58,924 bases of DNA, filler included, from Sphacelaria rigidula (GCA_964200075.2; 3 parts of 3 records of this genome joined end to end with filler, not necessarily neighbours in it); one strand, 5' to 3'; positions 7,730 to 39,359 are shown, counted from the first letter of the whole stretch. Numbers and translations are program-made. The notes: generated by a model from the sequence alone, not told the origin.

Positions 7730-9059
7730 GCACTAGCTCTAAAACTTTGCAGCCGTGCACGTGAGACACGGAAGACAAGGATGATCGCACGCCAATGCTC
7801 AGCGTGAGCGCGGTTGCGCACACAGGCCGTCTCAGTTTTGAGCTCGATTTGAAACAAGAGAAACGCGCTCCAAAACAACAAATGTCGTTGTTTCCCTCAA
7901 CTGTTGTCAACGGTCCGCTCCTCCGGTATGCTGGCTGCAGCCAGGCGGGCGCCGAGGCCCGCTCGGTTTCCCGCCGCGAGCAACCAGCCTGTTCCAGCCA
8001 CGCTTGCCCCCCTCCCCGCGAGCGCGCGCCGTCGGCGGCAACGCGCTGCGCCGCACGGCGTTTTTTTGCGAAAAATCGTTGATGAGTTGCAATGATGTCG
8101 AAGGGAGGTGTGGTGGCTGTTGACCAGCAAACTTAGCTTCGATAGCGTAGTCAGGCCGTTCTGAGCAAAAAAAAAAATGGACTGGATCGGACCGTCACGT
8201 GGTGCAACAGGCCACGCGGTAATGAACATACACAAGGCAAAGGAAAGCGTAGAGAAACGGGGGGGAGGGTACGTGGTGTTGAGGAAGAGGAAGAACTGAA
8301 ACAGGGGGTGGGGGGTATGAATGAGTGAGGGTATGAAATAATGAAACGGGAGCGGGGAATTGGATCCTGGCCGTTAAAAAATGAGGCCACCTGTGCATCA
8401 TCGGGCCTTCTTCCGTGCAAATAATATCTCGGGGGCATTCTGTGCGCATAATCGACGGAAAGGATCACGGAAGAGTTTTGCTTCCGCTACAACGCAGAGG
8501 ATTGTATGAGAGCTGATCCTGAGGTTTTTGTGCAACTCCTTGCTACGTTCATCAAACATAATGGACAACTGAAATGCAGGTGATTTCCTCGACACCCTCA
8601 TACATGTCGGTAAGTCTATACAATCCGCCAATGTCGGGTCAACAACGGCTCGATTTGAAGACGTTGGATGCCTGAGGCGGATGTCATTGCACAGCGAAAA
8701 CAAAACAAACGATGTTGAAGTGAGTGGAATGCAATGATCTGTGACGTGAAAAGGCAAAACGTGCGCTCAAACGATACGGCAAGACATATTGCAGACAACT
8801 TCAAGAGCCGCCGCCACAAGCGACTCGAAGTCAAACTCCTTGTCAGGATACCCACGGTTGTTGGAAAACACCACGGAAAACACACACCATCCATGTAGAA
8901 CAGCCGAAAGGGAAGTTCTGAACAAATTATTCAATTAACGGGGGGAAAAGAATATCGGAGCGACCAGCGTGAAACAAAAACACACCCAGGGTGATGTTTT
9001 TTTTTCATCTCATCCCTGATTTAGATTGGGGGAGGAGGGAGGGGGGGAACTGGTGGTAT

Positions 9060-19580: not shown

Positions 19581-19680
19581 NNNNNNNNNNNNNNNNNNNN
19601 NNNNNNNNNNNNNNNNNNNNNNNNTTAATTAATTAANNNNNNNNNNNNNNNNNNNNNNNNNNNNNNNNNNNNNNNNNNNN
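19581..19680. other. Artificial contig-joining spacer (44 N + TTAATTAATTAA + 44 N)
   Basis: Exactly 100 bp. The central palindromic 12-mer at 19625-19636 gives stop codons in all six frames. Confidence 0.97.
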
Positions 19681-20158
19681 CAACCGTTGCTGCTTTCGAC
19701 CACGATCTGACTCGAAATTTCGAGCAACAAATGGCTCAAAATACCCCCCCCCCCCTATCGTAGGATGACTCAGACGCCAATTCAACAAATTGCCAACGCT
19801 TGCGGTTAAAGAGTGAAGGCGCAAATTTTCGAGTTCAAATACAGGATCGACACATGAGGTCCTTTGGAGAAGACTCTGAATACGATAGTATGTGGAGGAC
19901 AGAAAACAGTCGACGCAATGCGGGAGTGCAGATGCAAAACCCGAATGCGGGGCAGATGCTGTAGAGAAATGGGTTGGTATCTGGAAATTACAGACTGGTC
20001 CGGGAGGAGGGTCGGAGTATGAGGAGAGATCAAGAAAACAAATCCCACCGGAACACGAAAAACACGCGGACGTTCCGAATCGTTAGTCCATCGTGAGTAC
20101 ACGTGTAATTTTTCACCGGGTCTCTCCCTTTCTACTCTCGGGCGTTTTCCTACCTCAG

Positions 20159-21546
20159 AGCCGAGTAATGACTGCTTTGAGCGCCAAAGACCTCACGGAA
20201 AAGACTTTGGCGGCGGGACTCAGCGCTGCGGTCGACCAGCACGACGCAGAGGCGGTCAAGGAGGAGAGCAGCACGGTGGGACGGGGAAATCACGATCGAC
20301 AGGTGACCGTTTCAAGGTGGTCTTTTATTTGTTTTTTGTTGAATATTGCGGTTTATTCGTAAAAAAGCAAAAAAAACGTCAAGACCGGAGTCCGACAGAA
20401 GAGAAGAGAATGTTTCAATGAGGGATATCCTAAGAAGTGAAATGGAATACCATAATGGCGAAAGCGATTATCTGGCAAGAGTCGAAGCTCAGAACCATAA
20501 CGTGGCAGTTCGCCCGTTGGTAAAAATGCTCAAAATAGTCAATGACTCATTATTTTAGTACACATTACGTCGCTGTACCCTGGCTGGCAATACATCCCGC
20601 GTCCTGCTCATGTTTTCCCTACATCCCCTACCCTCCTCTGTTCGTCTGTGCTACTACTACCCTTACCCATATTCCCCCATGTACGAATGTTCCACATGAT
20701 TTCACCCTACTATCCTCGCTCGACTCCCGGGTATGTATGTATTACAAGTACAGAATGAAAAAAAACGACGCACAGAGAACAGACACTAGTGTTGACACTC
20801 GTATATCGCAACGTCTGCGTACCCTGTGCTAAATATGCGTAGGGCGCCTGTGCCCCTCGCGCGCCAAAAACATTTGCTTCACTCGACACGGCCACTAGCA
20901 CGGCCCCGTCCATCATCTAATGCTACACACGTAGCACCTATACCGTAGAATCCAAAATACATTTGCTACTTTGAAGCATACAATTACAACAGATAATGCG
21001 TAAACCGAGAATAACAAAAGCCGAGTCATGTATGCCAGCACAGGTAACGAAGCAAAGGCACCAGCTCGCCGAATGCACTTGCAACTATCTTACGTCGATG
21101 TAATCAACCAACTGGGTCTCCAACCCTCGTATACCTTCCAGACCCCGATTGTGACCACGATATTACTCATATGCCTCACTACACTTCATCGAGACCCCTT
21201 TAAAACAGTTGCTATCGCAACCAGAAAGATGACATGAAACCTCGGGGGAAAAATGCACGGATATGGTCATGACTGAACTGTATTCGATAAGTGTGGGTAT
21301 AACCATCACGCGCCAACTATTATTGCACCTTGGGGCCCACGAGTAATCCTGCAATGAAGAAAGACTACGAAGTCACTGACTGCACTTCGTTCTTTCCCTC
21401 TTCTCTCTTCTTGGCAGGATATCATAATTGCCGCTTTACCCCAGCGGCTACCGGAAGGACAAGGCACTGGGAACCTGTTCGCGCCAACGTTGTTCCATTC
21501 CTGCTCTACATTTTCCTTGCGTCTTCTACGCGCTGCACTACACTAG
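20159..21546 (+). CDS. Probable 3' exons of an uncharacterised gene, 5' part missing at the contig start
   Basis: Exon 20159-20302 has a polypyrimidine tract plus CAG, 48 codons (SRVMTALSAKDLTEKTLAAG...HDRQ) and a GT donor. A candidate terminal exon 21418-21546 has a strong pyrimidine tract and reads DIIIAALPQ...LH*. The junction is phase 0. Confidence 0.4.
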
Positions 21547-22556
21547 TTTCGGAAATACAACAATGGACTTTTCGACAAAAATGAAAGAGATCAGATTCCA
21601 GCAAAGACGAAGCTGGTACCCCCAAACATGCGCCTGGCAACCAAGGAACGGAGAAGGCATCTAACCGAGAAGAAAGGCATTGGCAACCGACAAGATGGAT
21701 GGCTTCGAGAGGTCAACTCATCCGAAAGCTTGCCAAGTATCCGCATCTCACGAAGTACTCGAATCCGTTGCATTATTGGCAATACAACATATCAATCAAG
21801 CGAGTGATGAACCACGGCCACCCCGGTGTTTCAAGATAAAAATATGGACTCTCATGCTTCTCATGACTACACGTAAAACCGGGCGATGATGAATTGGAGT
21901 ATCGCGAGGACCCAAGTTGGTTCGCAGGATCCGGCATCTGAGCTGTCTCGTCCTTGTGTGATAACCCCTCACACAGATGAGTCGCATCCCGACTGCTCCA
22001 ACGGAAACACACAACGCGAGCATCAATACGAGCGTAGCACTTGTTAGTGATGGAGTGATTGCTGTACTCAAACAGATCCGCTGAGGATCGAGCCGTAGTC
22101 ATGATGAGGTGGACGTGGAGAATAGGAGTGATCGGAAACTTCAGAAAATGGGGGCGAGACGGGGGGAGTCAAGAAAGTTTAAAATAAAGTAACCAGGAGA
22201 GATGTCAGCCTCAAGGACTAGTGACAGCTCCACAAAAAGGTCCATACGGTCCCTAGCCACATTTCAGAATAAATACCGTGCAAGAAACCAAGTTACCTTC
22301 ACACTGGACAGCAGCCAAGGGGGGTATTGTATAGAACGTCCTACCCTCCTGCCCGCGACCTTTGGGATGTGAAAGGAGCTTGTGTTCTTCATCCAACACC
22401 AGAAAGTTTTGTGCAGGAGACCGAGCACTCGGCGGGACCCTATCTTGCTTACAAAAGTTTCTTGACACACCAGTCAAGCACAACATGGGTGAGGTTCAAG
22501 GGTAAACATTAGCTTGGCTTGCATAATCCGTAGCCAGGATGCTTCTCTTACTATTT

Positions 22557-25500
22557 TTAATGACAGTACTCATGGGCTGTAGAGAAAAATATCCGTGAGC
22601 ACCCCCGCGGCAGCTGGAAAGATAATGACTAGAGAGAGTACGAAATGAAGCAACAGGGAATAAATGACAAAAAACAAGCGTTACAAGCCAAGGAGACCAG
22701 GCAATTTAGTGCTCGCTGAACATTTCAAAACAATCACACTTGATCTGTTCCAACACAACCGCGGGCAAAAATTCAAGTCGAAATATGCGGCATCACTCTG
22801 CAGCAATTGCGCACACTTAACCCGTAGACCGCGAGGTTAGTCTTCTGTTGAATCGGCATCAATTTTAAGTGAAAAAAGGTATGCCTGATCCAGAAAGACT
22901 AGTCTCGCGGTCTAAGGGTTAGACGACATCAGTCACGAAGGCATGGCATTTTTTTCAAGATCGACCTAATGCACTTTTCTCCGGCGACATCATTTGCAAG
23001 AAAGTAGCAACCAGCAACGCACCAGAGCCACTCCGAACGCTGCCAATGGACTGAAAGGACCCGTGAAGTCCAGCGCGAATACGTTGTCCTCCTTCGAACG
23101 GCCGAACTGCATGATGAATTGCCCCCGGCTGTTGTGCAACATGAAATTTTTTACCGATTGCTTCTTGATCCGGTCTTTGTAAAACTCCAACACGAAGTAA
23201 CCCGCCTGCATGAACCGAAATCAAAATCGCGTAGGAGGGGGGGGGGGGGGGGGGGGGAGGGGGGGAAAAAAGGGGGGGGCCAAACCCAAAAAAAGGGAAA
23301 GCACAAAAAAAAAAACCCGGGGGGGGAAAANNNNNNNNNNGGGGGGGGGGGGGGGGGCGGGGGAAGCGAGGACTACAGATGGGTGGCCAATCCTGACAAA
23401 TGGACAGCATCGAATGAAAATCACCGAGGTGTGAACAAGCATCGACGCTCCGACGAAACGATTCGTCGTCTTCTCCTCGTGTCCTTCAGCGATAAGATAT
23501 AATGGCGACATTTTTAGCATACATCACTCTCCCCACGTCATATCACAAGTATGCCCGCCCCCCTCCAGTCGGCTGACTCTTGCGCTCCGTCATATGGTGT
23601 ACGAAAAAGCAACCGCGGTACTCCCTGTATTGCACGTGTTCCGACCTGCGTACTCGGAACAATTCGCGTGCGCGATGCATGTACATCGTACACACGCATC
23701 TTGCAGCGTTTGTGTTTGTGGCTCTGCAGTGCACGGTGGTGGATGGGAGGCGTTCCCGATCAACCCCGTTTCCAACCAAAGTCAATCTCTCCCATAAAGA
23801 TCCATTTTCATCGAAGAATTCCGGTGAAGAAGCGGTCTGTAGAAAAACGCACATCTTAGAGAACTCATCTCCGAGAGAACAGCGGTCCGAAGGACATGAT
23901 TCACCGAAAACTTACTTGGAATTGAAGACCCAGCACTTTTCACGACAGGTTCTTCTCCGCATCATGAAAAGCAACCTGATTATCCGAAAAATATCGCCTC
24001 TTGCAAACACAGTTTTCTTGCATGCGAAATTCTTTCATCATCTCCGCAAGAATAGCACAAGACCATCACCTGAGCGCCCTCAAGTTTGCATTCTTTTACG
24101 TACTTTTGTGTCGTACAAGTACAAACGCACGAGTATTTTTTACCGTACGTGCAGGTGACTCACGTCCTCGTCCCACTCAGGCTTGATGCTGTGCATGCGA
24201 GGCACTGGAGTGATGATGTTGGTGTTGTCGTTGCCGAAGCTATTCAGCAAAGAGGCGTGGTCAACCACTTCATCGTCGCTATCCGCCACAAGCACCTGCG
24301 GCGCCGAGCGATCACGGCGGACAACGATCGTGCGGAGGTAACTTGGTCATAACGGACTGGTTCCATCATGACAGCGGCGCAAACTCAATGCCACAACATT
24401 ATTAAGCTGCCGTGAGAAACTCGCCCGCACGATTGCCTCCTTTGGAAGCCCTCAGGCGCCATGTAAGCGCTCAACGTACGCGTATAGTGGCTGGACTCAC
24501 CTCAAGCTTTCGTGGGCCCTGGAAGTCGTCATGACGAGTGAGGTCAATGCTCACGGCCGCGATTTCCTTGCGCTCCGGCTTGATGGTGTACTTCTCCGGT
24601 CTGGAGCGACAGCACAAGGGATAAAGTAGCTCAGTATACTGTCGTAACTGGCGCTTCAATATTCGTGCGACTGATCACATCGATTCTACCTCCGACGGGG
24701 TGTTGCTGGCAAGCTCCAGTACCGAGACATCATCCAATGTGACGGTACAATGTACACTTGGAAAAGATATGCGATGTGATACAGAATCGGGCTGGTTATG
24801 GAAGTCTGTGTACTTCTGCGATCACCGAAGCTATCATGTGCTGGGTTTTTGCATGGTACTCCTCACAGTGTCTTGTTGGCCTTGAATCCGTTATCGTACA
24901 CGATGTACTGTCGTCGCTGCGCAACGGCTTTAACCTTCCCCAACGTACTCGGCTCTCCTCGCTTGAGATAGGCAGGGTTCATGGCGATGATGTATCGTCC
25001 CTTGTCTTTTTTGGCTGTCATGAGAAGTTTCATGGACGGCTGCGCAAAAATCAGAACGAAAACAAGCAAGACCATGTGCCAAAAGTTTCTCTCATCATTC
25101 GCTACCAGATGTGCTACGAAAGATTGACCCGGCATCTGCTCAACACGAGAACTAAAACCTTCATGGGTATAGCGGCCCGTACACTGGGTCGAGTCGGAAA
25201 GCACAAGGATGGGGATTGTAATGCGTGAAATCTGACACTACTCTAGGTACTGCACATGCGTGGCATGCCCTCACCACATGACCAACGTAGGAGGATCTAA
25301 CGGGGTTTCGGGGCACCTATGCACATGCCGGAAACTGCACCTTACTGCGTCAAGTTTCCCACATCAAGTGAAGGAACTAAAAAGGAAACGCACACTGTCG
25401 TGCAGAGGAAGGGGGCAACAACAAATGGATTACAGCAGTCGATGCAGCTGCGAATGCTCATCACGATCATGTAATCGCTCCCAATAAGGCGTTGCTCACC

Positions 25501-28500
25501 TCGTAGTAAGCCTGGTATACAGTGCTCATAACCCCCTTCTTGCGGCGAATCATGCACTCGATCACACCAGTGTGCGCCTCTACCGGCTGATTGAGGAAGG
25601 CTCGCATAGTGGCCATGGTGAACGGCTCCGTCCGGGGCGTACTGTCACGATAGGAGCGGAGGTGAAAAAAACAATCAGTTGCAATACCATCGAGAGAATA
25701 GGCTGCCGGAACTACAGAGAAGAAACTTCAATCGATTCATGAAAGGAATGCGATGTACAGGTTTGTACATGTAAGGCCACCTCGTTTTCTCATCAGTCTC
25801 ACGGTCAGACAAAGAAAGACTAAGGTACTCTCCCACTGCTGTCGATATGGGCGCAGGATGCACACAGCCAAAAAACATGCAACGGCGGCAACGATCGAAA
25901 TAGACAGGGTACTTTGAAATTGAGATGAAAAAGGCGGTGGGGGTATCGCACGAAACCTAATGCAATGGTCTCAAGTGCTGGCGAACAACCTGGCATGGAC
26001 CTCCAAGTTTTGAGGTCGCTTACAGATGCTACGGTGATATCATTGATCAATCATGCTCACGGTAGGTTAGCACCCACTCCGGCCACTCCTGTTCCAGGCG
26101 AGGTCTCCTGTTCAGGTTCCTCTTCGTCAGACATATCTGTATCATCGTCCGGCTGGTCGGGTGACGCAGGCGATGACGGTGACACGGGCGACACGGGCGA
26201 CACAGGCGACACGGGAGCTGCGTTCGAGTTCTCGACCTCCTCTTCGACCTCCGCAATCTTCTCCACTTCCAAGGGGTCCAAGGGAACGACGTCTTCGTCG
26301 ACGCTAATGTGCAACGCCTTCTCTTGTCGCGCCTTCTCCTTCGCCAGCGCGCGCAATCGCCGTTGTTCCTCGGCCTGCTGCTTCCGAAGTCTCGCCCGCC
26401 GTATTCTCCAGTGACGGATAATTTTTCGTGAGCACCTCCGCTCATAGAACGCCATGATTTCCTCCAAGTGTTCGTGCTCCGCCCCCCTTGTGGAATCAAG
26501 TCAGTACAGTGCATACAGGACAAAGGTAACGGGCTAAGCCCTGGCATTTCTACCACGTTCAATCCATACCGGTTGCCGAGTTGAACGTATCGGCGTTCAG
26601 CTTCTAATCTGTCGGTCGTACGAGCACGGTACCTTTGGTCGATTGTTGCAAAGTGAGCTGCGAAAATATCAACTTCAAAACAATAATGCCTCCAACACAG
26701 ATACCCAACACTCCCCAAAACAACACCACCACACACATTCCCACCCCATCAGATCCCCCCCCCCCCCCCCCCTCCCAAAAAAAAATATATATATACTCCG
26801 AGCAAAGGCTACTAGAACTCATGCTAAGTGACGAAACGCGGTCAGAGTTACCGATAAATGATTGCACGACATACGAAGAGACACAACAGAAGCACTCACC
26901 TGATGAATATTTGCGTTGTACCCATCTCGTACTTGGAACGCTGATCTAGCGCACGCGATCCGCGCGTATTTCCGCTGCTGTCGTCAACCATCAAGTTGCT
27001 TGCCAAGGCTAAACACGCGGTGGCCTGAACACTTTGGTTGCCGTTGAGCACCTCTCGTGTGACCAAGTGTGGCGGACCCAGTTTCTGGTATCTTTGAAGA
27101 AACTCCGTATGGGAGACATTTACCCCGACGAATTTGTACACCTTGTAGAAACATGATGGAGCGAAAAAAACAGACAGTATGACATCACAAAATTAGCAAC
27201 AACTTTTTTTTCACAGGCTTGACTATTTACGCTTTTGGTATGTGTATGCACATGGAACAGGCGAGTTCACCGGTGCTGATCCCTCAAGCTCCTTCAAGCC
27301 GCCTTTGGCAGTTACAGTAGCGCACCTGAGCCGCCTCGACAATGCTCGCCGACAGCAGCTGCTGCGTCACGTACTCGTCCTCAAAAAGCACTGGATTATT
27401 CTCCATGTTGGGACGAATACAGAGAATGTATTGCACCTGAGCGGAAGAACAGGGAGGAAGTAGAGGTAAGCCGTTGTCCCCGGTTGACACATCCTGGCAA
27501 ACTCTGCTTCACGTTGTGTCAGAATGCAAACGTGTCCCCTTGTTTTGGCGATACCGAAAGCGGGAAGGTGGTCAAAGTAAGGACTACTGTGGAGATGACC
27601 CGCACCTCAGTGGAATGGATCCGCTCAACCAACGCCTTCAGCTCCCCCTTGAAGCGGGAGCCCATGCTTTCCCTTTTTGAAACAACTTGCCCCCCCTCCA
27701 TAACTGAAGTTACACGCTTGCCAGATCGCCTGTTGAAATAGTCAAACATGCATGGAGGGCCGACGACACACGGCGAAACACAAGAAACTGTTGCAGTGAA
27801 CAAGGACGGATCTTCCAACGCGATGAGTCGGCAGTGATAATGACACCTCGGACCCACAGGCAAGGCCGAAGGAATCGACTACAACGTCGCTTAATCCTCC
27901 ATCATGGGTGTTGGACAGGTGTTACCGGGCAGCACTTCAAACGTGGTGGCGGTTACTTACGCTGACCCCCCTCTGGCGGATCCCGTCTCCTTTTGCTTGA
28001 ACATCGCCAGGCGGGCCTTGAAGTCTTGTTGTGCCGGCATAGCTTCACCCCCACCGCCCGTCCCCTCCGCTCCATCGGACGTGTAGGCGTACACCCTGCA
28101 AAAACGGCAATGCGTGACCGAGGTTCACACGGAACGCACATGATGACCGGTGTTTGACAGGTCACATGCCCATAAGAACGTTGTGCACTACATCAACGAC
28201 ATGCGACACGCATGCACGACATCGAATCGCCAATCGAACAACTTTTTTGAGGTGAGGAACGTTCAATCCTCCAGCTGGCCGGGCGTACTACGCCACATCG
28301 CAGTGTCCGACGACTCACGACCAGCCAGCCGCATAATAACGCACATTTTAACCATGTTGTTCACGCTCGTCCCCAGCAACTTGGCAACACTTGTGTGCAG
28401 TCTATCCCTGTTCCGCTCCACGAAGCCATCCGCGTCGTACTTGACGGCATGATTGTAGTGGTGCACGGTGAACTGCTTCTGCCTCGAGTTTGCTCGCAGC

Positions 28501-31500
28501 TGTTGCTCGTACTTCACCTAACTCACGCGTGGGGCAAAACGGCGGGAAGATGGCCTAAATGAAAAGACCAACAGGTTGAGCAAGCCTGGCTATCTGTCGG
28601 TCAACACGAGCTGTGACAGCATGTCGCACAGCCGCCTGCAAACCCGTGTACCTGGTATAGTTCTGTTGTCTTCATCGGGAATGAAACTGTCCTCGCTCGC
28701 AATCGAAACAGGAACCTCGAAAATGCGCTCGTGATGCAGTGTGAAACTCAAAACAACTACTGCTCAGGGGTGGTGCGGGACAATTGCGATGAAAGGGGCT
28801 TAATCTGTGCGTACGTCACTGGTGGCGGTGTACCAACGTTCGGTGTCGTCACCCATGACGCGTGAAGCTAGGTACCTGTGTGTATGATTCCAGCAACGCC
28901 ACGAATCCGCTGTCTGTTCCATGAGGAAGCAGGCACTCTTCATCCAGCATCGAAAGGACTCCCCTTGATGATGTGAACGAAACAACAGCAACGCTCGGTT
29001 GTGTGAAGATCTCGTGCATGACAGGAACTGCGAAAAAGACGGCGAAAATTTCGAAACAGCGCTACCCATTCATCATAGACACGTTTTATGAGTGACAACA
29101 CTAGTACGTGCCGGTGAAAACGAATCAATTATCGCATGGGAAACACAACTTACCGAAGGATCCAAGCGCGATCTCAACTCATGCACGAGGTCACATCACA
29201 TAATGGGGAAGGAAAGAGCACATCAGTGGCGAAATGATTCACAAATACATGGTACCTGTGGCCCTCCAATGTGTCCAGAATTGTCGTGTTGTCGCGGTAC
29301 ATGAACTTCTCGCAGTCGATCCCTTCTTCCGCGCACAACCTTTCCACAGACTTGAACACATCCTGCGAAATTCACACGGCGGCAGTTTTCAGGCGACAGG
29401 CGATACGACACCACTACACTGAAGTGCGAACACTTTCATCACGCCTTAAGACCCGATAGAAACGTGCGTGGTATCACAGTGACCCCCACGAGCCAAGCGA
29501 ACAGTGTGACATGCCCAGATTATTGCTTGCGCCCTTTGCCGTGGCGCTGATGGTGAAAATGCTTCCCGGCTAATCAGCGGCCTTTAAATTGTTCTGAAAT
29601 TTAGGATGCGAGGTCTCGACTCAATTTTAACTCAATCTCATCATGAATAAAATCTTAGTAACACCATCAGCTGGGGAATCTGACGCCAATAAACAGACTT
29701 GCAAACGGTTTGTCTGGGATCTCTAGAACCCGAAATGTGGTATTTCGTTCATGTCGGGTTTTGGCGTCGTCGGGTTATCATTAATAATATGCATCGACGG
29801 CCCGGAAAGTCTCGTGACGTTTTCCCTTGAAAATTTCGTAAAAAGCTTCGATTATCCTCAAATTTAGCAATTTAGAAGAAAAGGGATCTACAAATGGAAA
29901 AAAAATCGTTCGAGAAGCTTCATCCGCTCTTTACCAGCTTCCGGGGGTCTCAGCGTGAAGATCCCCAGAAGCCGGTACAAATTACTTCACAATAGGAAAA
30001 AAATGGATTTGACTCGTCACTAAGTAGTCGTGGGGACGTTCGTACAAAGTTTGGTTGCGTAACTCGTAAAGCTGATCCCAAATGGTCGATCTAAGCTCAA
30101 CCGCACAAGGAGACTGTCGGTGAAATACTATAATCAAGTGATTAAAATGGAGGGGGTTCCGCGCACACCAGTATACTTCAACGTACAAACGTACAAATGC
30201 TGGAATTTTGCACACGGGTGCTCTGGGATACTTGGAAGGGCTGAATAAGTGGGGTCTTTTTTACTTTTGATTTTTTGCGCCAAATATATGGGGTCCCAGG
30301 AGGGGGGGGGGGGGGCGTGAGCAATCGCAGGGGAGCAAATTTCGATCGTTAACCCTTACCCAGTCTGTACACCAATTAGTGGCAAACGAGTCTATGGTCA
30401 AGGCAAGATCAAACAAGCCTACCTAATTAGGGGCACATAGACACAAAGTGAAAGAGGGTTATTCGTGCTTCAGTGAAACGAACCTGGATAAACATTTGCT
30501 GGAGCTTCTCGCTGGCGTAGTTGATGAGGAGCTGCTCAAAGCCGTTACGCCTAAACGACTCGAATCCGAAGATATCGATGAGAGAGATCGTTCCCGCTGC
30601 CTCTTCCGACTCGGTGCAACTGCGGTGCCACACAGCGACAAGCAACCGTTTACATCCGGGTACAGTGAGAGAGCTATCAAGCCGTTTTATCGACATTTTC
30701 CCAACTTGCCCAAGGAGTGCCACGTCTATTCAGCTGTGAACACGAGATCTTAAAAATTGGGTATGGATCTTTTATTGGGGATGAGAAACCGGAGGATTAA
30801 AAACTTCGTATCCACACCAAATCTTCGAAATATGGTTCTATTTCCTCACCTACTGACAGCCTTTGACAACTGCTACACGCCATAGAAATTTGGATTCCGA
30901 TCACCGGAATGTTGGGGTCCTAGGTGAAAAAACAATCTCGGAACCATTTTGGCGCCCGTTCGGACACCCGGAATTCCCCAAAATTGCTTCTTCACCTAGG
31001 GCCCCAACATTTCGGTGATCGAAATCGAAATTTGTATGGGGTGTAGCAGTTGTCAATAGCTATCAGTAGGTGTAGAAATGGAATCATATTTCGAAGATTC
31101 GATGTGGATACGAAGATTGTGATTCTCCGGGTTTCTCATCCCCAATAAATGATCCATCCCCAATTGGTAAGATCCCGTGTTTGTGGCACCAACCCCACTC
31201 CCCCCTCGTTCTTGTGGCCCTATACAGACGTTCAAAATTTATTCCCAAAACCACCATAAGACATGTGAAGGCTTCTGCAAGAAATTCATCAGCTGCAGGA
31301 GTGTCGCGCCACTTTTGACGATAGCCCTCCCCCCGAACCAGCCCAAAACTGTCACGAAAAAAATGGTCATGTAGCACCTCATGTTCATTCTCAGGCTGCA
31401 TGAAGCGCTTATATGGGCGACATTGACGTATACGGACCCATGCGTGGTAATTCCCAGACCTTTTGAATTTCGATTTCACGTGTAGATTTTGCCTACCCAA

Positions 31501-34500
31501 ACCAGCCAAATTTTTTCGGGGGGCTATCGTAGAAACTGCCTTCCAATGCACATGCGTAATCTGGTTTCGTGAGCTGATCTTTTCTGCACCCTCCCAATAA
31601 GGAAAGGGTATGACACAGTATCCAGGAACTCCGAAACTCAGCCGCCTTACTGCTGCTTTCAATCACCATATCAGCTCGACCTTCCTGACTCACGGTCAAA
31701 TCGTACAAAAGTCAAGCAAACAAGGTGAATCCTTGCTCCGACTTCGGGAAAATATTTCCAAGGGGCTGACCACATTCATTTTCATAAATCTGACCGCGTC
31801 TGGTGGCCTAATTGCTTGGATTCCGAGTACTCCCCTCTCTCCTCTCCTCATCAAATTCCGGCTTATCGAAAAGCATTCGGTGCTGTATTGCAACTGAAGT
31901 ATGTGTCAACTCTTGACTTGCCCAACCCCTCCGGGTTCCGTGCGTCGATAGTTCAGTTACGATGGAGTTGGTGTATAGCAATTGCATCGAACGTTCGGCA
32001 AGGGAACTCAGTCTGTCAGCCTTTGCAAAATCCAGCATCAAACCTGGCGCTTTACATCAGCACAACAGAGAGGGATTCATTGTCAGGTCTCAGACCGACT
32101 CGAGAGGGAGTCCTTCGAAATTCCTGTTCAAAACTGCCTTTCTGACCCTTCTCCGTCGTTTTACGCCTGAAAAGTGGGCTAGGTGGACATTGACGCCTTG
32201 GAAGGACTTTTTCTACTCATAGGACCGTTCCAGGGCAAATTTGCATTCGCCGCTGGCTGCACTCTAGTTTTTGGCCAAACATGGGTCATCAATAAAAACG
32301 GTCAAGCGAAAAAAAAACAGGGGAGAATTTTAATCACCTGACCGTTTTTCACTGAAATTCCTTGTTTGACCTGGTTTGGCCAAAAACCAAACTGCGGCCA
32401 GCGGAAAATACAAACTTGCCCTGGAACGGTCTCAACGAGTAGAGCAAGTCATTCCAAGGAGTCAACATCCGCCAAGCCTTTTCTTCGGGCGTAAATCGAC
32501 GGAGAAGGGCTAGGAGGCAGTTTTCAACAGGAATTTGAACAGCTCCTATTAGAGTTGGCCTCAGGGGCAGAATCTGACTTTTTGGTACTAGCGTTGGAAC
32601 ATTGCCTGATTACCCATGCAACAGGGTATAAGAGAACATAACAACGCTCCGAAACACCAAAAACATCTCCACTCGACGTCGGTTATGATTTGACCCTCAC
32701 AGGGAAAACTCTAGTGTGAATAGACTCGCCTCGTGGCCTCATTGATCTTCTTCAACAGGTAGTTGAAGATCCCAAGGTAAACATCCTTTGCGAGGGCATC
32801 CCTGGCGGCTTGAGCCTCCCCCACTTTGTTCGGCTTTACAAACTTTTCGCGAGCCACCTGCAACGGCCGTGTCAATAAAGCGCCTGACAGTTCCTCTGTG
32901 CTAAGGCCCAACAGCTCAGCCGCAATCTCCAGTGACTCCGTCATTCCCCCTTGAAGCTTACTGGAATCGTCAGTACGCCCTGTGTCAGACACGAATTCCA
33001 ACTGGCCCGGCACAAACAACGGCGAAAACAAGCGGTGGCGTTGAGTAAAAGTGCCGCGTGCGCTCAATACAGAACTCTCAGGCGAAACGACTGATGTCAT
33101 TCTTTCCACGCGTCCTCTTTTTTTTTCGGACTCGAGTTGCACTGGCGTGGGCATTTCGTCCTAAACTGTGAAGATCTCGGGGTAATAAAACTAAAGACAG
33201 TATTTTCGAAGCCGTACTTTCAATAGCTGTGTGGAATTGCGATGAAAAAAACGAGTGAAGTCTTGTGATACACGCGAGGAACATACTTTTGTGGTGATTT
33301 CTCGACTATTCTTTTGAGCTACTCAGAATACTGACATTTTACGAACTTCGCGCACGGCGTTTGATCACCTTTATTTGTGGTTTGTAACCTAGGGGGATCA
33401 TGGATACCAGCATTTCACTCGTTTTCCCACAGAAAGCTTCGCTGCCGATCGAACATTAACGGAGTTCAGGGCTAACCGGTGTTTCAGGGTCATGGGATCA
33501 TCATCCGTGGATTTCGGCTTCACCCTCTGCCTTGTATCCATCCCAGCTTATACAGGCTACAATCTAGTGTACCAAGCATCGCGGTGTTCAAGAAAAAAAG
33601 AATATTTCTCAAGACGCGCGCGTCCGGGGGGCGGGGGTCGTATCTAGTTTAGAGTACTGTACTGTATTCGAATGCCGGTTCATCAGCTGTAGTCATGAAG
33701 ATAATCAAACACAAGCTGGAGATTATGCCGAGGTAGGTCCACGTAAACAAAAAAATCAAAGTAATTCGACAAAACTCAAGTCTTATGAACAAAGAATCGA
33801 AAACAACCCTGTTGTGTTCCATCTCGGATCATGCGTCAAATAATGTTCCCCTCGTGTCGAAAAAAAGGCTGAAGAAATAAATAAACCATGACAACACATC
33901 GTGGAGCAACCCATTCAAACGCATAGAATGCTACAGCATGGCAGTGACGAACGCCCCTGTCCCGTACCAGGGCGAGTACATGGTTTCACGGCTTCCAATG
34001 GGAAGTTCTCCTCGGGCGTATCCCTCACCTGACCCAGATGAAGGAGTCCCCCCAGTGCCTTGAAGACGTCTTTCTCATCCTCAATATCAATACCCAGCTC
34101 GCGGATGGCATCCTGCACCTCTGCTAGCCCTGTGAAATCCTGGTCCTCGGCTGGAGCGTGTGTAGTGAGATACTTGAAGTCGTTTGACGTTTTCCCTGCA
34201 GTTGTGCATGTACGATGCGGGACGAAAATAACCCTCGTTGAGGTGTGCAGAAAACGTCGGGTGGTACACCAAACCGTGCGGCGACCTTGTCCCTTGTCCC
34301 TTGCCCTCATAAATGCATTCGCTTGTGTTCGGACAGCGGAGAGAAAAATAAACGCAATCGAGACGTACGCCAACTACTCTGCAACGTTAGGCTACGGCAG
34401 ACATGATGTCAGACTCGTATAAAAACTCCACGCACATGCATAAATTAGGTCTTGACCCAGCACTCACATACAACGTTAGACTACGGAAATGCTGCACACG

Positions 34501-35907
34501 GAGCATGGTTGAAAAAGTGTGGGAAAATACACAGGAAAAACGAGCATGCCCGTCTCAGCGGCTAGCCAGGAAATCACACGTTGCCGCCCCGGGAAAGAGC
34601 GGAGAAGCAGGCATAGCGTTGCACCTGAAAGTTGCATGGAGCTCTTGAACTCTTCATCGTCCGAGCCCACCATCTGATAAAAAACGTGAAAATTACGCTC
34701 TCGCGACGAGCGTGACACGACGCGACTTTTCTCCAAAAGGTAAGTCCGGTTAAGGGAACCGACCATCTTGGGGATGTCACCATCGTCAAACTGCAGCTGG
34801 GTGACCACCCCGTAGCGACTGCTATTGTTGTTACCCATCTGAGAGGTTTAGAAGCGAGAGAGCACAGCAAGTGTGGTTGGTGTCTTCCTGGAGAGGAAAC
34901 ACAAATCGCTCATGTGCATGGCAAGTCCTTCGTGGATACACTGGCACGGTTGGGTACACATGGATCTCAAGTGAGTGCTGACGTAGCACTCATGTCTTGG
35001 AGCCGTGATACCTCAATAATGACGGCACATGATCACGACTGCTCGATGATAAAGGCCCAGGTACAAAACAATCTGTTCAGCAAGAGCGTTGTCCTAAATT
35101 GTCCTAGTACCTAAGCAGCACTCTAAGGCCAGAAGATCGCGAAATAAACACGGCTCTTCATCGTGAGCATTAAACTCTCAGCCTCATGCCTGTACACAAA
35201 AATTTCACGAGGAAGCCGGCATACGTGTGTCAGCGCGCACCCGCGTCACTCGGATATCAATCCAAAACAAATCAATTAAGTTCGTATCATTTGCGCAACC
35301 TGTACAATGATAATGAACAGCATTAGCGAAAAGTTTACTGTGTACAACATTGTTTTTTCTTTGTTTATATACAGTATCGAATCCATGATCTACAACAATA
35401 GACAACATATTCGCTACTATACGCAGTACACTTTTTTTCGCCCATGTCATCCATTATAATTGTCAAGGGTGTGACGTTTTGACATGGGTACGACGCAACG
35501 CTGGCATCCATGGTGTTTCGATACTACCGATTGCATAGTTAAAATAATTTCCTACGCCATGGATGAACACTGAATGCATGCCAAGATCTCTTGCTACCAT
35601 CTGTAGCTACCGTCGGGCCGGCAAGGAATCCCGACGAATTTTGATCAAACTTTCGGGCGTGTTTTCGAATACAAGGCGTTCAAGATATACATCAAACAAA
35701 GTGCATACCATGACAGCATTTCCAAAGCTCTCGAGAACCACGGTGCACTCCACCATGTGCTGAATACGCTCGCTCCCAACTCCTCCCTCCTCCGACCCAG
35801 CAACGGAGGCCAAGTGACCAAGGAGAAGCTTAGCCGTCTCAGTTTTCCCCGCGCCTGAAACGCCGCTGATGAGAATGCTCTGATCTTCCTGACCCTCCAG
35901 CAAAGCA
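22557..35907 (-). CDS. Unconventional myosin with divergent motor domain, one IQ-like motif and a C-terminal Tubby domain (5' end unresolved)
   Basis: Phase-consistent exons: 35907-35709, 34838-34625, 34195-34029, 33001-32730, 30619-30484, 29362-29256, 28963-28876, 28517-28345, 28095-27961, 27729-27606, 27436-27326, 27141-26900, 26632-26570, 26486-26061, 25641-25500, 25039-24867, 24600-24501, 24295-24164, 23205-23023 (1062 codons), plus a tentative last exon 22628-22557. Myosin motifs: [77 protein letters not shown]. Tubby motifs: GKVK...[50 protein letters not shown]. Confidence 0.88.
22821..22918. mobile_element. 98-bp piggyBac-type miniature element
   Basis: Flanked by TTAA and TTAG. Termini are CCC...GGG with TIR CCC(G/T)TAGACCGCGAG. 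A reverse-orientation copy of the same length lies at 55953-56050. Confidence 0.8.
23023..25641 (-). other. Tubby (Tub) domain-encoding exons of the myosin gene
   Basis: Five exons translate to [22 protein letters not shown]...LLMTAKK...YIIAMNP...LGKVK...VYDNG...RKEIAAV...GPRKLEVLV...[27 protein letters not shown]...IMQFGR...[19 protein letters not shown]. This is colinear with the TUB/TULP domain consensus. Confidence 0.9.
29565..29810 (+). repeat. Copy of dispersed repeat family A in a myosin intron
   Basis: Same motifs as 17040-17290 and 53935-54185. Confidence 0.7.
30733..31187. mobile_element. Foldback element (~210-bp arms, ~40-bp loop) in a myosin intron
   Basis: ttattggggatgagaaacc...atcttcgaaatatg...ttgacaactgctacac...gatcaccg.aatgttgggg.cctaggtgaa (30770-30930) is mirrored at 30985-31150. 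Confidence 0.85.
32111..32540. mobile_element. Foldback element (~175-bp arms, ~80-bp loop) in a myosin intron
   Basis: aaattcctgtt.aaaactgcct...cccttctccgtcg...gaccgttccagggcaa...gtttttggccaaac (32118-32280) is mirrored at 32375-32537. A single diverged arm lies at ~37520-37690. Confidence 0.8.
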
Positions 35908-36890
35908 CTTTCAGGAGTGCAAAGCAAACAGATGGATCAAGAACGGACGCCACGACGTTTGCGTTTGGAGGTACGTCACCACGCTGCGATACTCCGTTTG
36001 AGGTCAAAATAAGACTACTTTTGGAGGCAAAAACGTAGAAGGGCAGTACAAATCGAACCAAACGTGGACGGTTTTCACCACGCTTACGCACTAACTTGCC
36101 AAGAGACATGATGGAGATACACGAGGTGTCACGCGGGGACGAGAACGGCTCACGGCGGAGCAACGGAGGGCACAGACGTATCAGTGGTCACATCGACTAT
36201 AAAGGGGCGCTTTACGGAGCTCAGAATACTTGCGGGAAAAGCTAGACTCACCTTTCAAAGTACGTCGCCGTAAGGGCATGCATGCAACAGATTGGTCAAC
36301 TCTTGGACCGACAGATAGTAATAGAACCATGATATCGCACGAGTGTTGTCACGGTAGCGCCGCCGTAATAAACCACTGTGCTCATCCATTCCGGCAGCCA
36401 CATACGAATATGTGGCATAGGCATCACATGACCGGCTTCCGAGAACAATTGGCGAGTGAGGTGTGGTTCATTTGCGTTGGTCGTGATTCCAAACCTTTGG
36501 AAGCACGGTGACTTTGATCTGGGCCGTCCTAGAGGCGAATCTGTAGGTTGCAGGTCCGTTCTCACCTTAATTTTGGGGGTTGGACTTTCGAATTCAGTAT
36601 GGAGAATCAACAGGACAAACTAAAAAAATAACCTTTGGGGTGTTGAGATTTTATTTTCATGACTTCCAGACTTTACCATAAAAAATGGATACTGTTTGCC
36701 TCCAACTCATGAAAAATAACCTTATCGTGCCAAGGTCATTATTTATTTCACATCCTGCTGATTCTTCATGTCAAGCTTGAAAATCAACTCTCACAACTAA
36801 GGTGAGAGTAGGGAATCTGGAACCTGGGCCGGTGGATTCGGCACAGTGTTTTGCAGGCCAAACACAAGCCCAGTTTTGGTACTGGTGCTA

Positions 36891-37418
36891 CTTCCTGTCC
36901 CATAAGTAAAGGTACCTAAATTTATACAGGCCCCTGACGATATCTGTTTTTTTTTTTTTTCAATGAACTCTACGGTGCTTTTTGGGTCAAGAAAATGTAT
37001 ATAAAATTTGAAGTTCTTGCTTGAACCATGCCGCCGAGCGGCTGCAAAAACAGTGTCGTTTTCTTTTATCGCGTGAGACTTCCTGGCCGTTTTTTGCCCC
37101 TTTCCGAGGGGAAAAAAAGTGTCGATTTTTTTGGGGTCGCGTGGGACTTCCTGGCAGCAAGCCCCAGTAAAGGCGTGGGCGATGAATAAAATAAAATAAA
37201 ACGACACTTTTTTTCCCCCTCGGAAAGGGGCAAAAAACGGCCATTTTCGGGCCGACTATTTTTGTTGCAGCCGTTCGGCGGCATGGTTCAAGCACTAGCT
37301 GCAAATTTCGAACACATTTTCTGAACCCAAAAAACACCGTAGGGTTCATGAAGAAAAAATCGGACATCGATAAGGGCCCGTACAAATTTAGGTACCTTTA
37401 CTTATGGGACAGAGGAAG
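36891..37418. mobile_element. Stowaway-like (Tc1/mariner-type) MITE
   Basis: TA on both sides (36889-36890, 37419-37420). Termini are CTTCC(TC)TGTCCCATAAGTAAAGGTACCTAAATTT, and imperfect inverted arms run for about 230 bp. Confidence 0.85.
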
Positions 37419-39182
37419 TATGACATTTTGTGTGAAGAATCACTAGGGCACAAGAACAAAAGCAGAAAAAAAATGTCATTTTTTTAAATGACTTGGCCGT
37501 TCGTCGTGGAAAATACAAGATTGGTCAAAAACAAAACTGTGACCTACGGGAAAAAGACGCAAAGGTGCCTTGGAACGTTCTTTATGGGTAGAGCAAGTCA
37601 TTCCAACGTGTCAACATCCGCCTGGTCCTCTCTTCGGGAAAAAACGACAAAGAGAAGTCAAAGAGGCGCTTGTGAAAAACATTCTTCGAACCCATGAGAA
37701 GTGGCCTTAGCCGGCGACATTATGTCATTTGTTGAATCGATATCAATTTCACTCGAAAAAGTATGCGTGGTCCGGATGAACTACCCTCGCGGTCCAAGGA
37801 TCAAGAGCGATTTATTGGAAGGACCAATTTCCCACGAGAACGTTTTTGACTCACAAAAAAATGATGAAAATTAAGGGCCCACATCATTCTTGTTTTCAGT
37901 ATGCCCTTGCGACCCTACATACAAAATTTCAAAGCACAACAAAAAAATTGAACTGAGAACCCGAGCTAAGGGCCAAAAATCAAACGTCCATTTTTCGCTG
38001 AAACGCCCCCAAGACTTGACAAAACTGAATGAAAATAATTTCCCAATACGCAGTAGCAATTCTCCATACCAAATTTTAAAGCACAACTCTCAAGACAGAC
38101 GCAATATCTAGATGTACTGCATTTACCACCACTACTCGTAATATTTTGAGCTTGGCATGGAATCTTATGTGCGCCATATCTCTAGATAGATGACGGATAA
38201 GGGAAGGTGAGGGTATCGATCGTTTTCTCGTGCTCCAGGGATTCTTCACCCCCCAAATCGTCTTCATCCGCTGTAGATATCGTTCGAGGTTTCACATACA
38301 GTACAGAGATATTTCCGTACGGTATAGGAATATTTCGATATGGCGTTCGAAAAAATCCAACCTTCATTTTCCGACAAAAACGTCCTTGAATCATGAAAAA
38401 TATGTACCTAAACTGCATCGGTGTGATATGGCTGATAGCTTAAACCCGTTCCTAGGCTGGTCCAGGTCGTAGTGTACAACTTACAACTTTGCGAAAACCT
38501 CGTTCTACTTGGCGTAACCGTGTGCATTGCTCCTTCCCATACGAAAGCATCAACAAGCGAAGAGGGGTCCTAAGGCTCCACTACTCCACGACAGTATGGC
38601 AATAAGAAAGCAGTTGGCCAAGATACATAGATGTAAAGAATGAACGGCGATGGATACCATCGGATATTTAATACTGAGCAGACACGAAAAAACATGTGAC
38701 GCCCAGGGTCGCGCTGATTTTACTGCGTGCACACCCACAAACCTCTCACATACACTTCGTAAATGTACGTCGCATTGAAGCGTGGACGAACGAGGCTGCA
38801 AACACAACCCTGTACTATTTGTTATGAGGACGAATCCCGAATCTGCAGAGAACAATCTGTGCAAAATTGGGGTGACACATATACGTGGAAGTCAGATTTG
38901 GAGGGGGGGCATTACGGTTTCACAGGTTTGTTGAAAACGTTCTGCACACGGGCGGTCATTTTTTACAGGGGTGTGGTATCGGATTCACAGTGAAGCCGAA
39001 GAAACAGGCAGGCAGTGAATCGTTCTTCAAGAGCTTCCCTAGAAATACATTTCAGTAAACTCCACCCATCACAGTACAGTGGGGGTCACGCTTCAAAAGA
39101 GGTCAAGAAAGCTTGGCACACCACTCTCTTAAACCGGAGCCATTATCTTGAACCGAACTCTCTTTTCTCTTCACCAGAGCTC

Positions 39183-39259
39183 GATCGCCCCGGTGGCTCA
39201 GTTGGTAACCTCGTAACCTTCTGATCGTTGAGTAGGGGGGTTCGATTCCCGGAGCGATC
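39183..39259 (+). mobile_element. tRNA-like head of a SINE, truncated by the contig end
   Basis: GATCGCCCCGGTGGCTCAGTTGG (A box) ... GGTTCGATTCC (B box) ... GGAGCGATC. Same family as 1885-2252. Confidence 0.75.
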
Positions 39260-39359
39260 NNNNNNNNNNNNNNNNNNNNNNNNNNNNNNNNNNNNNNNNN
39301 NNNTTAATTAATTAANNNNNNNNNNNNNNNNNNNNNNNNNNNNNNNNNNNNNNNNNNNN
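39260..39359. other. Artificial contig-joining spacer (44 N + TTAATTAATTAA + 44 N)
   Basis: Identical design to 19581-19680; the 12-mer is at 39304-39315. Confidence 0.97.

Follow-up and report, generated by a model that had tools for sequence, protein, structure and literature searches.

The closest known counterparts of the gene considered here are the class XXI myosins, which are presented as a myosin V-like assembly of stramenopiles and haptophytes with IQ, WW, PX, and Tub (PF01167) domains in their tails, in the part of Sebé-Pedrós et al. (2014; PMC3942036) that treats them. The main text of that work devotes one sentence to Tub tails and gives no list of species. Neither Tub nor tubby is mentioned in the main texts of Odronitz and Kollmar (2007) and Kollmar (2017). 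In Kollmar and Mühlhausen (2017), some Ectocarpus and Saccharina myosins are orphans, and the present one may be among them. We describe here a gene of this type (the Tub-myosin gene) on a 58,924-nucleotide (nt) stretch of DNA from Sphacelaria rigidula (GCA_964200075.2), called the window below. A first reading made from the sequence without database searches (the sequence-only reading) had proposed, between 35907 and 23023, a myosin motor fused to a C-terminal Tubby domain. That proposal is borne out by a single transcript, by Pfam matches to both Myosin_head and Tub, and by fused orthologs.

Like the class XXI proteins, as far as these are characterized in the relevant part of PMC3942036, the Tub-myosin comes from a stramenopile, falls in the myosin V-like assembly, and has at its C-terminus a Tub domain drawn from the listed set of tails; in our tree, stramenopile myosins with WW, PX, CH, and IQ tails form its sister group. 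It differs in that the Tub-tailed members form a clade of their own, with a long stem and a nucleotide pocket stripped of charges. With mouse Tubby, TULP1, and TULP3 (structures 1c8z, 1i7e, 2fim, and 8fh3), it shares a full-length Tub domain (E 1e-22), a basic pair equivalent to K330/R332, and a C-terminal helix. Unlike in those proteins, the N-terminal part is a myosin instead of a TULP N-terminal region, an F-box, or WD40/SOCS, and the Tub domain has Lys for R332, Arg for N310, a shortened 301–305 cluster, and SGCDSSV as its C-terminus. With myosin I (TH1/PH tails), the PH-containing myosin X, and the PX-tailed myosins of classes XXI and XXX, the likeness is one of mechanism and not of descent: a motor is joined by a short neck to a module that binds phosphoinositides, and the task expected of it is to connect membrane with actin. 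The lipid-binding fold is unrelated to those of the myosin I-type tails, and the Tub-myosin is not of class I, since it nests with the V/XI/VIII-like group with myosin Ia as outgroup. Class 18 (Myo18A/B) also deviates at the Glu of the GESGAGKT P-loop and in switch 1. However, Myo18 loses the switch-2 Glu (DTxGFQ), whereas the Tub clade keeps DIFGFE and the switch-1 Arg, and there is no phylogenetic relation between the two.

A single transcript for motor and tail

The junction between the two halves lies in front of the Tub domain. The donor is CTACC/GTGAGC, with 26061 as the last exon base, and the acceptor is GTGACAG/TAC, with 25641 as the first exon base. The reading frame passes through the joint into the start of the Tub domain; retention of the intron (25642–26060) leads to an in-frame TGA at 26059–26057. 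The coordinates given in the sequence-only reading for this junction are exact: the intron is of the GT-AG type, 419 nt long and in phase 2, the frame continues, and RNA joints are present.

Three transcript-like runs (X1, X2, and X8) and one DNA-like run (X5) were compared over positions 22900–36300. The small-record lengths and depths of X8 duplicate those of X1, and the two are possibly the same data; the independent support amounts to two samples of one study that are clearly distinct, and perhaps to another study besides. Run X5 acts as genomic DNA, with a depth of ~66–72 over exons and unique intron sequence alike and no joints at the introns of the gene. The three others act as transcriptomes, with two intron bins at depth 0 and exon bins in the hundreds. 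Of the 17 introns from 35907 to 23023, at least 15 occur as exact joints in X1, X2, and X8 (at depths of ~370–490), and in none of the contigs of X5. The lengths skipped at the joints (958, 205, 266, 460, 419, 413, 184, 169, 231, 249, 358, 292, 1121, 2110, and 1027 nt) are those of the model introns; the two introns outside the joints listed are 34196–34624 and 34839–35708. On the plus strand the joint ends read CT..AC, corresponding to minus-strand GT..AG, except in the 2,110-nt intron, where they read CT..GC.

At the joint 25641/26061, the depth is 419 in X1, 490 in X2, 466 in X8, and 0 in X5. Transcripts ending at the TGA of 26059–26057, followed by a separate Tubby messenger, had been named beforehand as the observation that would contradict the fusion; what is found is a spliced joint at 419–490 and unspliced contigs over 25642–26060 at a depth of ~6 (in X1 and X2). 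Contigs that retain an intron elsewhere in the gene have depths of 6.6 and 13.2. Record 1 of X1 (3,687 nt) includes exon 13 (26061–26485) together with Tub exons 16–18. No joints being present in the DNA run, a genomic retrocopy is not the source of the spliced form. Motor and Tub domain come from one expressed gene with one transcript.

Exon–intron structure and gene ends

Searching the window (tblastn) with the four full-length brown-algal orthologs, P0001–P0004, gave 18 matches in collinear order, spanning 35906 to ~23014, with 41%–100% identity per piece. A boundary search over 16 GT-AG junctions and one GC-AG junction, with the key junction read directly from the sequence, found consensus ends at all introns; the ends are GT-AG except for one GC-AG intron (32730/30619), which follows exon 4. 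All exons are on the minus strand (Table 1). There are 18 between 35907 and 23023, where the sequence-only reading had 19, and 19 in the window with an exon missed in that reading (21992–21969). The spliced frame is open over 1,048 codons, and the resulting model is 82%–85% identical to P0001–P0004.

Both limits of that earlier range lie inside the gene. Position 23023, taken as the gene end, is an exon end with a GT donor. The RNA contigs depart from the window sequence there, and their 30-nt continuation matches 21963–21992 exactly; the final exon, 21992–21969, encodes SGCDSSV and a stop codon, a C-terminus identical to that of P0002–P0004. Judging from the extent of the RNA contigs, the 3′ untranslated region probably reaches ~20340 (about 1.6 kb). 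Position 35907, taken as the gene start, opens an exon that begins at the third base of an Arg codon, next to an AG acceptor (35909–35908). Upstream of 35908 the RNA contigs continue and encode the HIYKSTAAAY peptide of the orthologs, and the window lacks ~88 N-terminal codons that both the orthologs and the RNA contigs have. No match to the 30-nt extension of the RNA contigs beyond 35908 was found in the window with up to three mismatches allowed, and tblastn with the first 95 residues of the orthologs found nothing credible there. The gene is 5′-truncated in the window because its 5′ exons fall beyond the end of the contig (39259, next to the linker at 39260–39359).

Table 1. Features of the Tub-myosin locus, in the order of transcription, with the evidence for each
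Feature	Positions	Strand	Evidence or remark
Contig-joining linker	39260-39359	.	Second copy at 19581-19680
Window exon 1 (true first exon beyond the contig)	35709-35907	-	tblastn 98.5% to P0001-P0004; Myosin_head E 1.7e-14; P-loop GVSGAGKT at 35864-35841
Exon 2 (motor; switch motif 34835-34806)	34625-34838	-	tblastn, boundaries, Myosin_head E 1e-18
Exon 3 (motor)	34029-34195	-	tblastn, boundaries, RNA joint 33001/34029 to exon 4
Exon 4 (motor; DALAK region)	32730-33001	-	tblastn, boundaries, Pfam, joint 30619/32730
Exon 5 (motor; switch II DIFGFE 30576-30559)	30484-30619	-	tblastn, boundaries, RNA joints, Pfam
Exon 6 (motor)	29256-29362	-	tblastn, boundaries, joints 29361/30483 and 28962/29255
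Exon 7 (motor)	28876-28963	-	tblastn, boundaries, RNA joints
Exon 8 (motor)	28345-28517	-	tblastn, boundaries, RNA joints, Pfam
Exon 9 (motor; part of Gly-rich surface loop)	27961-28095	-	tblastn, boundaries, RNA joints
Exon 10 (motor)	27606-27729	-	tblastn, boundaries, RNA joints
Exon 11 (motor; YILCIRPN)	27326-27436	-	tblastn, boundaries, RNA joints, motif alignment
Exon 12 (converter; end of motor)	26900-27141	-	tblastn, boundaries, RNA joints; no Pfam match alone
Exon 13 (neck helix 26485-26309, linker 26308-26061)	26061-26486	-	Sequence, ortholog model; no Pfam match
Key intron	25642-26060	-	419 nt, GT-AG, phase 2; sequence and RNA joints
Exon 14 (Tub start)	25500-25641	-	tblastn, boundaries, RNA joints; aligns to mouse tubby via P0001
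Exon 15 (Tub; K-V-K 24937-24929, KKDKGR)	24867-25039	-	tblastn, boundaries, RNA joints, Tub 26.1 bits
Exon 16 (Tub; PERKEIA, GPRKLE)	24501-24600	-	tblastn, boundaries, RNA joints, tubby alignment
Exon 17 (Tub)	24164-24295	-	tblastn, boundaries, RNA joints
Exon 18 (Tub, most conserved part)	23023-23205	-	Pfam Tub E 2.1e-13; donor CTG/GTGCGT
Exon 19 (SGCDSSV and stop)	21969-21992	-	RNA loose end, AG acceptor, ortholog C-termini

Domain architecture and predicted structure

In P0001–P0004, Pfam finds Myosin_head at about residues 12–735 (profile positions 1–679, E ~1e-155 to 1e-157) and Tub over profile positions 2–252 (or 3–255) of 256, with E values of 1e-33 to 1e-35 and scores of 117–123 bits (cut-off 27). 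The essentially complete Tub domain first described is upheld by the orthologs. Ten exons of the window were scanned directly (six of the motor, three of Tub, and the neck/linker exon). The Myosin_head cut-off was passed by five of the six motor exons, the converter exon being without a match. Among the Tub exons, 23023–23205 scores 51 bits (cut-off 27) and 24869–25039 falls just below with 26.1 bits; there is no Pfam match for the first Tub exon (25500–25640) or for the neck/linker exon.

The architecture is that of a motor, a single neck helix (~59 residues) in which there is one degenerate IQ-like motif (at 26431–26390), a disordered linker of ~60–85 residues that is acidic and rich in Pro and Ser, and a complete C-terminal Tub β-barrel. 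An IQ-like motif had been noted in the neck from the start, and by eye it is one; the Pfam IQ profile (PF00612) does not detect it, with no match at E ≤ 0.01 in P0001–P0004 and none in exon 13 of the window. “IQ-like” is for this reason the correct wording. The one weak match to that profile is in P0008 (E 0.013). In all four of the full-length brown-algal proteins measured, the neck is basic and the next 44–65 residues are strongly acidic. A long Ala/Glu/Lys-rich repeat enlarges the neck in Chrysoparadoxa, which suggests a single-helix spacer rather than a dimerizing coiled coil. Within the linker of the window, a tandem repeat with units of 9, 18, and 27 nt (26158–26215) encodes a (V/S)SP run; it is absent from the orthologs, and the length of the linker therefore differs between species.

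An AlphaFold2 model of the ortholog P0001, made from an alignment of 51 rows, has a mean predicted local distance difference test (pLDDT) score of 84. The motor is confidently modeled, apart from a surface loop at 549–600 that is predicted to be disordered (pLDDT <50). A single unbroken helix covers residues 736–794 and is followed by a stretch with pLDDT <50 (794–856). The Tub region, 860–1108, is rich in strands, with pLDDT mostly of 84–97 and a terminal helix at 1095–1107. In Foldseek, the motor model matches structures of myosins X, Va, Vc, and XI, with target-normalized TM-scores of ~0.8.

Orthologs, phylogeny, and class

The search for orthologs began with the largest exon (26060–26500). 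Four full-length brown-algal models of 1,094–1,127 residues were found, P0001 (Undaria), P0002 (Ectocarpus sp.), P0003, and P0004 (Ascophyllum), all recorded with PF00063 and PF01167; they are the four best matches, at the 82%–85% identity given above, in agreement with the brown-algal origin initially supposed. A fifth brown-algal fused model is P0005 (Discosporangium). Predicted fused orthologs are in all found in these five brown algae, in Chrysoparadoxa (P0007), and as P0008 and P0135. Orthologs encoded as two separate genes had also been named as counter-evidence; all the full-length orthologs found are fused, myosin with Tub.

With the motor as query, the brown-algal orthologs come at 88%–91% identity. 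At 39%–44% follow Phaeothamnion (a partial sequence with no tail recorded), the Chrysoparadoxa protein P0007, and P0008, the last two both with Myosin_head and Tub. At 32%–35% come myosins of oomycetes and other stramenopiles with CH, WW, PX, or IQ domains, and then myosins V, XI, and VIII. Tribonema P0038 has a sub-threshold Tub match at its extreme C-terminus (E 0.03). With the Tub region as query, a word-based search returned just five brown-algal proteins (Tub identity among brown algae is 91%–96%), and a look-up of the Tub part in a protein atlas gave generic Tub clusters only. An exhaustive HMMER search with the 61-residue Tub exon, a query too short to list all Tub proteins, gave 123 matches. 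Of ten long or near matches scanned with Pfam, one has a myosin head (P0135); the others have Tub alone, SAM with Tub, or RING with Tub. P0134, a match of this search, is a Tub-only protein of 293 residues that aligns with the last large Tub exon at 60% identity and carries ahead of its domain the EPF motif seen in the fused proteins. Either it stands alone as a relative, or it is a piece of the gene model for another Tub-myosin.

A maximum-likelihood tree was computed from 51 motor domains with myosin Ia as outgroup (P0044, with a mis-merged envelope, was left out). The Tub-myosin clade (11 rows), a small one drawn from brown algae and ochrophytes closely related to them, has a support of 100/100, and so has its grouping with 20 stramenopile rows with WW, PX, CH, or IQ tails, apart from the V/XI/VIII representatives. 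In the quick motor tree, the stem of the Tub clade is 0.98 substitutions per site long. In the same tree, the window protein branches after Discosporangium and outside the Ectocarpus/Undaria/Ascophyllum group, with a weak Shimodaira–Hasegawa-like approximate likelihood ratio of 80; this position hints that the window gene comes from a brown alga outside the orders of those three genera.

The matching tail domains and taxa are consistent with a class XXI membership of the Tub-myosin, the tree itself being made of sequences without class XXI labels. That Tub-tailed myosins might already be listed had been foreseen, and PF01167 is indeed among the class XXI tails in the portion of PMC3942036 on that class. 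With this listing of 2014, and with public gene models that contain it, the architecture is not novel. The sequence-only reading knew of no functional study, and none turned up in our literature search on myosins with a tubby or Tub domain and on brown algae, parts of which returned only papers on plant tubby-like proteins (TLPs) or on oomycetes.

The nucleotide pocket of the motor

Four charged residues of the nucleotide pocket are lost in every Tub-clade motor, that is, in all nine rows that cover the region and in P0135 (the proteins concerned are P0001–P0008, P0038, and P0135, and the sites in the window are 35864–35841 and 34835–34806). The Glu of the P-loop GESGAGKT is replaced by V or M; it is kept in all 40 of the other myosins aligned. 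Switch-1 AKT has V, A, or G for its Lys (Lys in 37 of 40 others), the Arg before NxNSSR is G, D, or S (Arg in 37 of 40), and the Lys of SSRFGK is V or A (Lys in 40 of 40). The relatives with WW, PX, or CH tails do not have the de-charged pocket. In the Tub clade, GKT, NxNSSR, and DIFGFE are retained, and since the latter two are intact, the switch-1 Arg and the switch-2 Glu that make the salt bridge used in hydrolysis, the one Myo18 lacks, are present. A literature search on the variant pocket motif strings (including GVAGSGKT) returned no myosin paper.

In myosin-2, the P-loop Glu, a switch-1 Arg/Lys, and a residue of the N-terminal subdomain form a network, and the number of salt bridges in it correlates with thermodynamic coupling and with actin-activated ADP release, as stated in excerpts of the study concerned (PMC5749951). 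By analogy, this suggests that the head of the Tub-myosin, without the charges of the network, would be weakly coupled and slow.

The putative lipid-binding site of the Tub domain

The Tub region of P0001 aligns with the mouse tubby chains 1c8z and 1i7e (E 1.2e-22). The offset between chain and mouse tubby numbering, 240, was derived from the C-terminus of the chain and from the length of mouse tubby, which we take to be 505 residues. At two positions that presumably belong to the lipid site, R363 is conserved as R and N310 is replaced by R in the P0001 alignment. In the segment GKLRSN of mouse, aligned with GKVKAV, K330 is kept as K and R332 becomes K, so that the charge is kept and the residue changed at 332. 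The [KR]-x-K pair is present in the four full-length fused proteins checked (4/4). Opposite RKRKK of mouse (301–305) stands a shorter KKDK, after a gap of four residues, and the KKDKGR stretch aligns to part of that site. According to excerpts of two papers (PMC10445746 and PMC6366083), K330 and R332 make the canonical pocket for phosphatidylinositol 4,5-bisphosphate, PI(4,5)P2, with membrane binding abolished by mutation, and residues 301–305 are a second PI(4,5)P2 site. From this alignment, lipid binding by the Tub domain of the Tub-myosin is plausible.

Proposed function and rival explanations

On balance we infer, with moderate confidence, that the Tub-myosin works as a single-headed (monomeric) link between membrane and actin that is anchored by phosphoinositides, in line with the phosphoinositide-targeted motor or tether suggested in the sequence-only reading. 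The Tub domain would dock, through its basic pocket, on a membrane rich in PI(4,5)P2 or similarly anionic, and the motor would bind cortical F-actin. Single-headed action, as in myosin I with its lipid-binding tail, is probable, because there is no long coiled coil. The membrane would then be linked to actin, or pulled against it, at short range, with an attachment that would depend on the phosphoinositide level. In the least secure step, the loss of the four charges would weaken the coupling between nucleotide and actin and slow ADP release, giving a head suited to hold tension and not a fast motor. An extended version, speculative and in our estimate unlikely, makes the Tub-myosins a distinct mechanochemical type: a releasable actin–membrane clamp of brown algae and their relatives, with a very slow load-holding head (since loss of the P-loop Glu and of the switch-1 Arg/Lys would remove the salt-bridge network for nucleotide–actin coupling), a Tub attachment switched off by hydrolysis of phosphoinositides and, possibly, an acidic linker that masks the basic lipid pocket.

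Several points weigh against the membrane–actin link. Three of the five residues of the second PI(4,5)P2 site are deleted in the alignment, and with Lys in place of R332 the specificity for lipids could be altered. With its pocket losses, the motor might not cycle normally. The monomeric state, which is probable, is read from one feature, the short helix. And the RNA label of the runs (X1–X4 and X8) is a guess, their nature as RNA being deduced from the pattern of splicing; of the eight runs retrieved, none is recorded as RNA.

The pocket losses may also be taken to mean that the head is a catalytically crippled pseudo-motor and the protein a passive actin–membrane anchor, comparable to the class 18 myosins. 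The V or M at the P-loop Glu and the three missing switch-1 charges are found throughout the nine Tub-clade rows and P0135, and replacement of the P-loop Glu may, according to a review on Myo18, strongly affect ATP binding and hydrolysis. However, GKT, SSR, and the switch-2 Glu of DIFGFE, which Myo18 lacks, are intact, the motor is highly conserved across the brown-algal orders (the 88%–91% identity above), and the relay, converter, and lever are modeled as in active myosins; the stem branch is long, yet there is no sign of decay. We give this explanation, the main rival, little credence. Somewhat less credible to us is that the Tub domain serves mainly to bind protein cargo or DNA, be it in zoids for trafficking in flagella or cilia, or in the role of a nuclear factor released from the membrane, as once proposed for Tubby. 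TUB/TULP proteins have functions besides lipid binding, plant TLPs are called transcription factors in the abstracts of the papers on them, brown algae produce flagellated cells, and the second lipid site is just partly retained. The basic pair of the pocket is nevertheless kept across the clade, and a motor fused in cis leaves no obvious route for release to the nucleus. TULP3 binds the intraflagellar transport complex A through its N-terminal part, which is replaced here by the myosin, so that the analogy with a ciliary adaptor is weaker.

That the locus holds two genes, or an artifact of assembly or annotation, with a tail-less myosin ending at the TGA of 26059–26057 and a Tubby gene starting from the ATGs near 25616 and 25607, is highly improbable and largely refuted. 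The low-depth contigs (~6) over the unspliced intron in X1 and X2 are what such an arrangement would give, and a stand-alone form may exist, as in the Tub-only P0134. The spliced joint has, however, ~70 times the depth of those contigs, other introns are retained at a similarly low level, one contig spans both parts, the four full-length brown-algal orthologs conserve the residues that span the joint (VGANL-x-x-PRTEPFT), and the lack of the joint in the DNA run argues against a retrocopy.

Brown algae have acquired complex multicellularity independently, and their actin–membrane machinery has hardly been studied. As a proposed phosphoinositide-anchored link, the Tub-myosin is a conserved and apparently well-expressed candidate for connecting phosphoinositide signals to cortical actin, and the active-site changes common to its clade could inform on how the kinetics of myosins are tuned.

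Window layout and neighboring sequence

The window is made of three contigs, possibly without true adjacency, and the order of genes across the linkers is unreliable. The two artificial linkers (19581–19680 and 39260–39359) each consist of 44 N, TTAATTAATTAA, and 44 N, a type with stops in all six frames. The Tub-myosin gene sits on the 19.6-kb contig between them (19681–39259). Ten neighboring open frames scanned with Pfam were all without a match, and a search for tRNAs over 19000–40000 found none. Two open frames on the minus strand, 2458–5499 (1,013 codons) and 5837–7732 (631 codons), lie in the GC-richest part of the window (58%–61% GC). Both have a high content of Gly, Ser, Ala, and Pro, and Pfam finds nothing in either; they could be genes for low-complexity proteins or simply be driven by the high GC content.

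Within the 2,110-nt GC-AG intron, nested inverted repeats are present at 30739–31181, with arms of 156 nt that are 85% complementary and spaced by 36 nt. Their depth in the DNA run is ~250,000, compared with ~69 for unique sequence, and the segment looks like a very high-copy element resembling a miniature inverted-repeat transposon. An inverted pair similar to this one occurs at 36895–37412.

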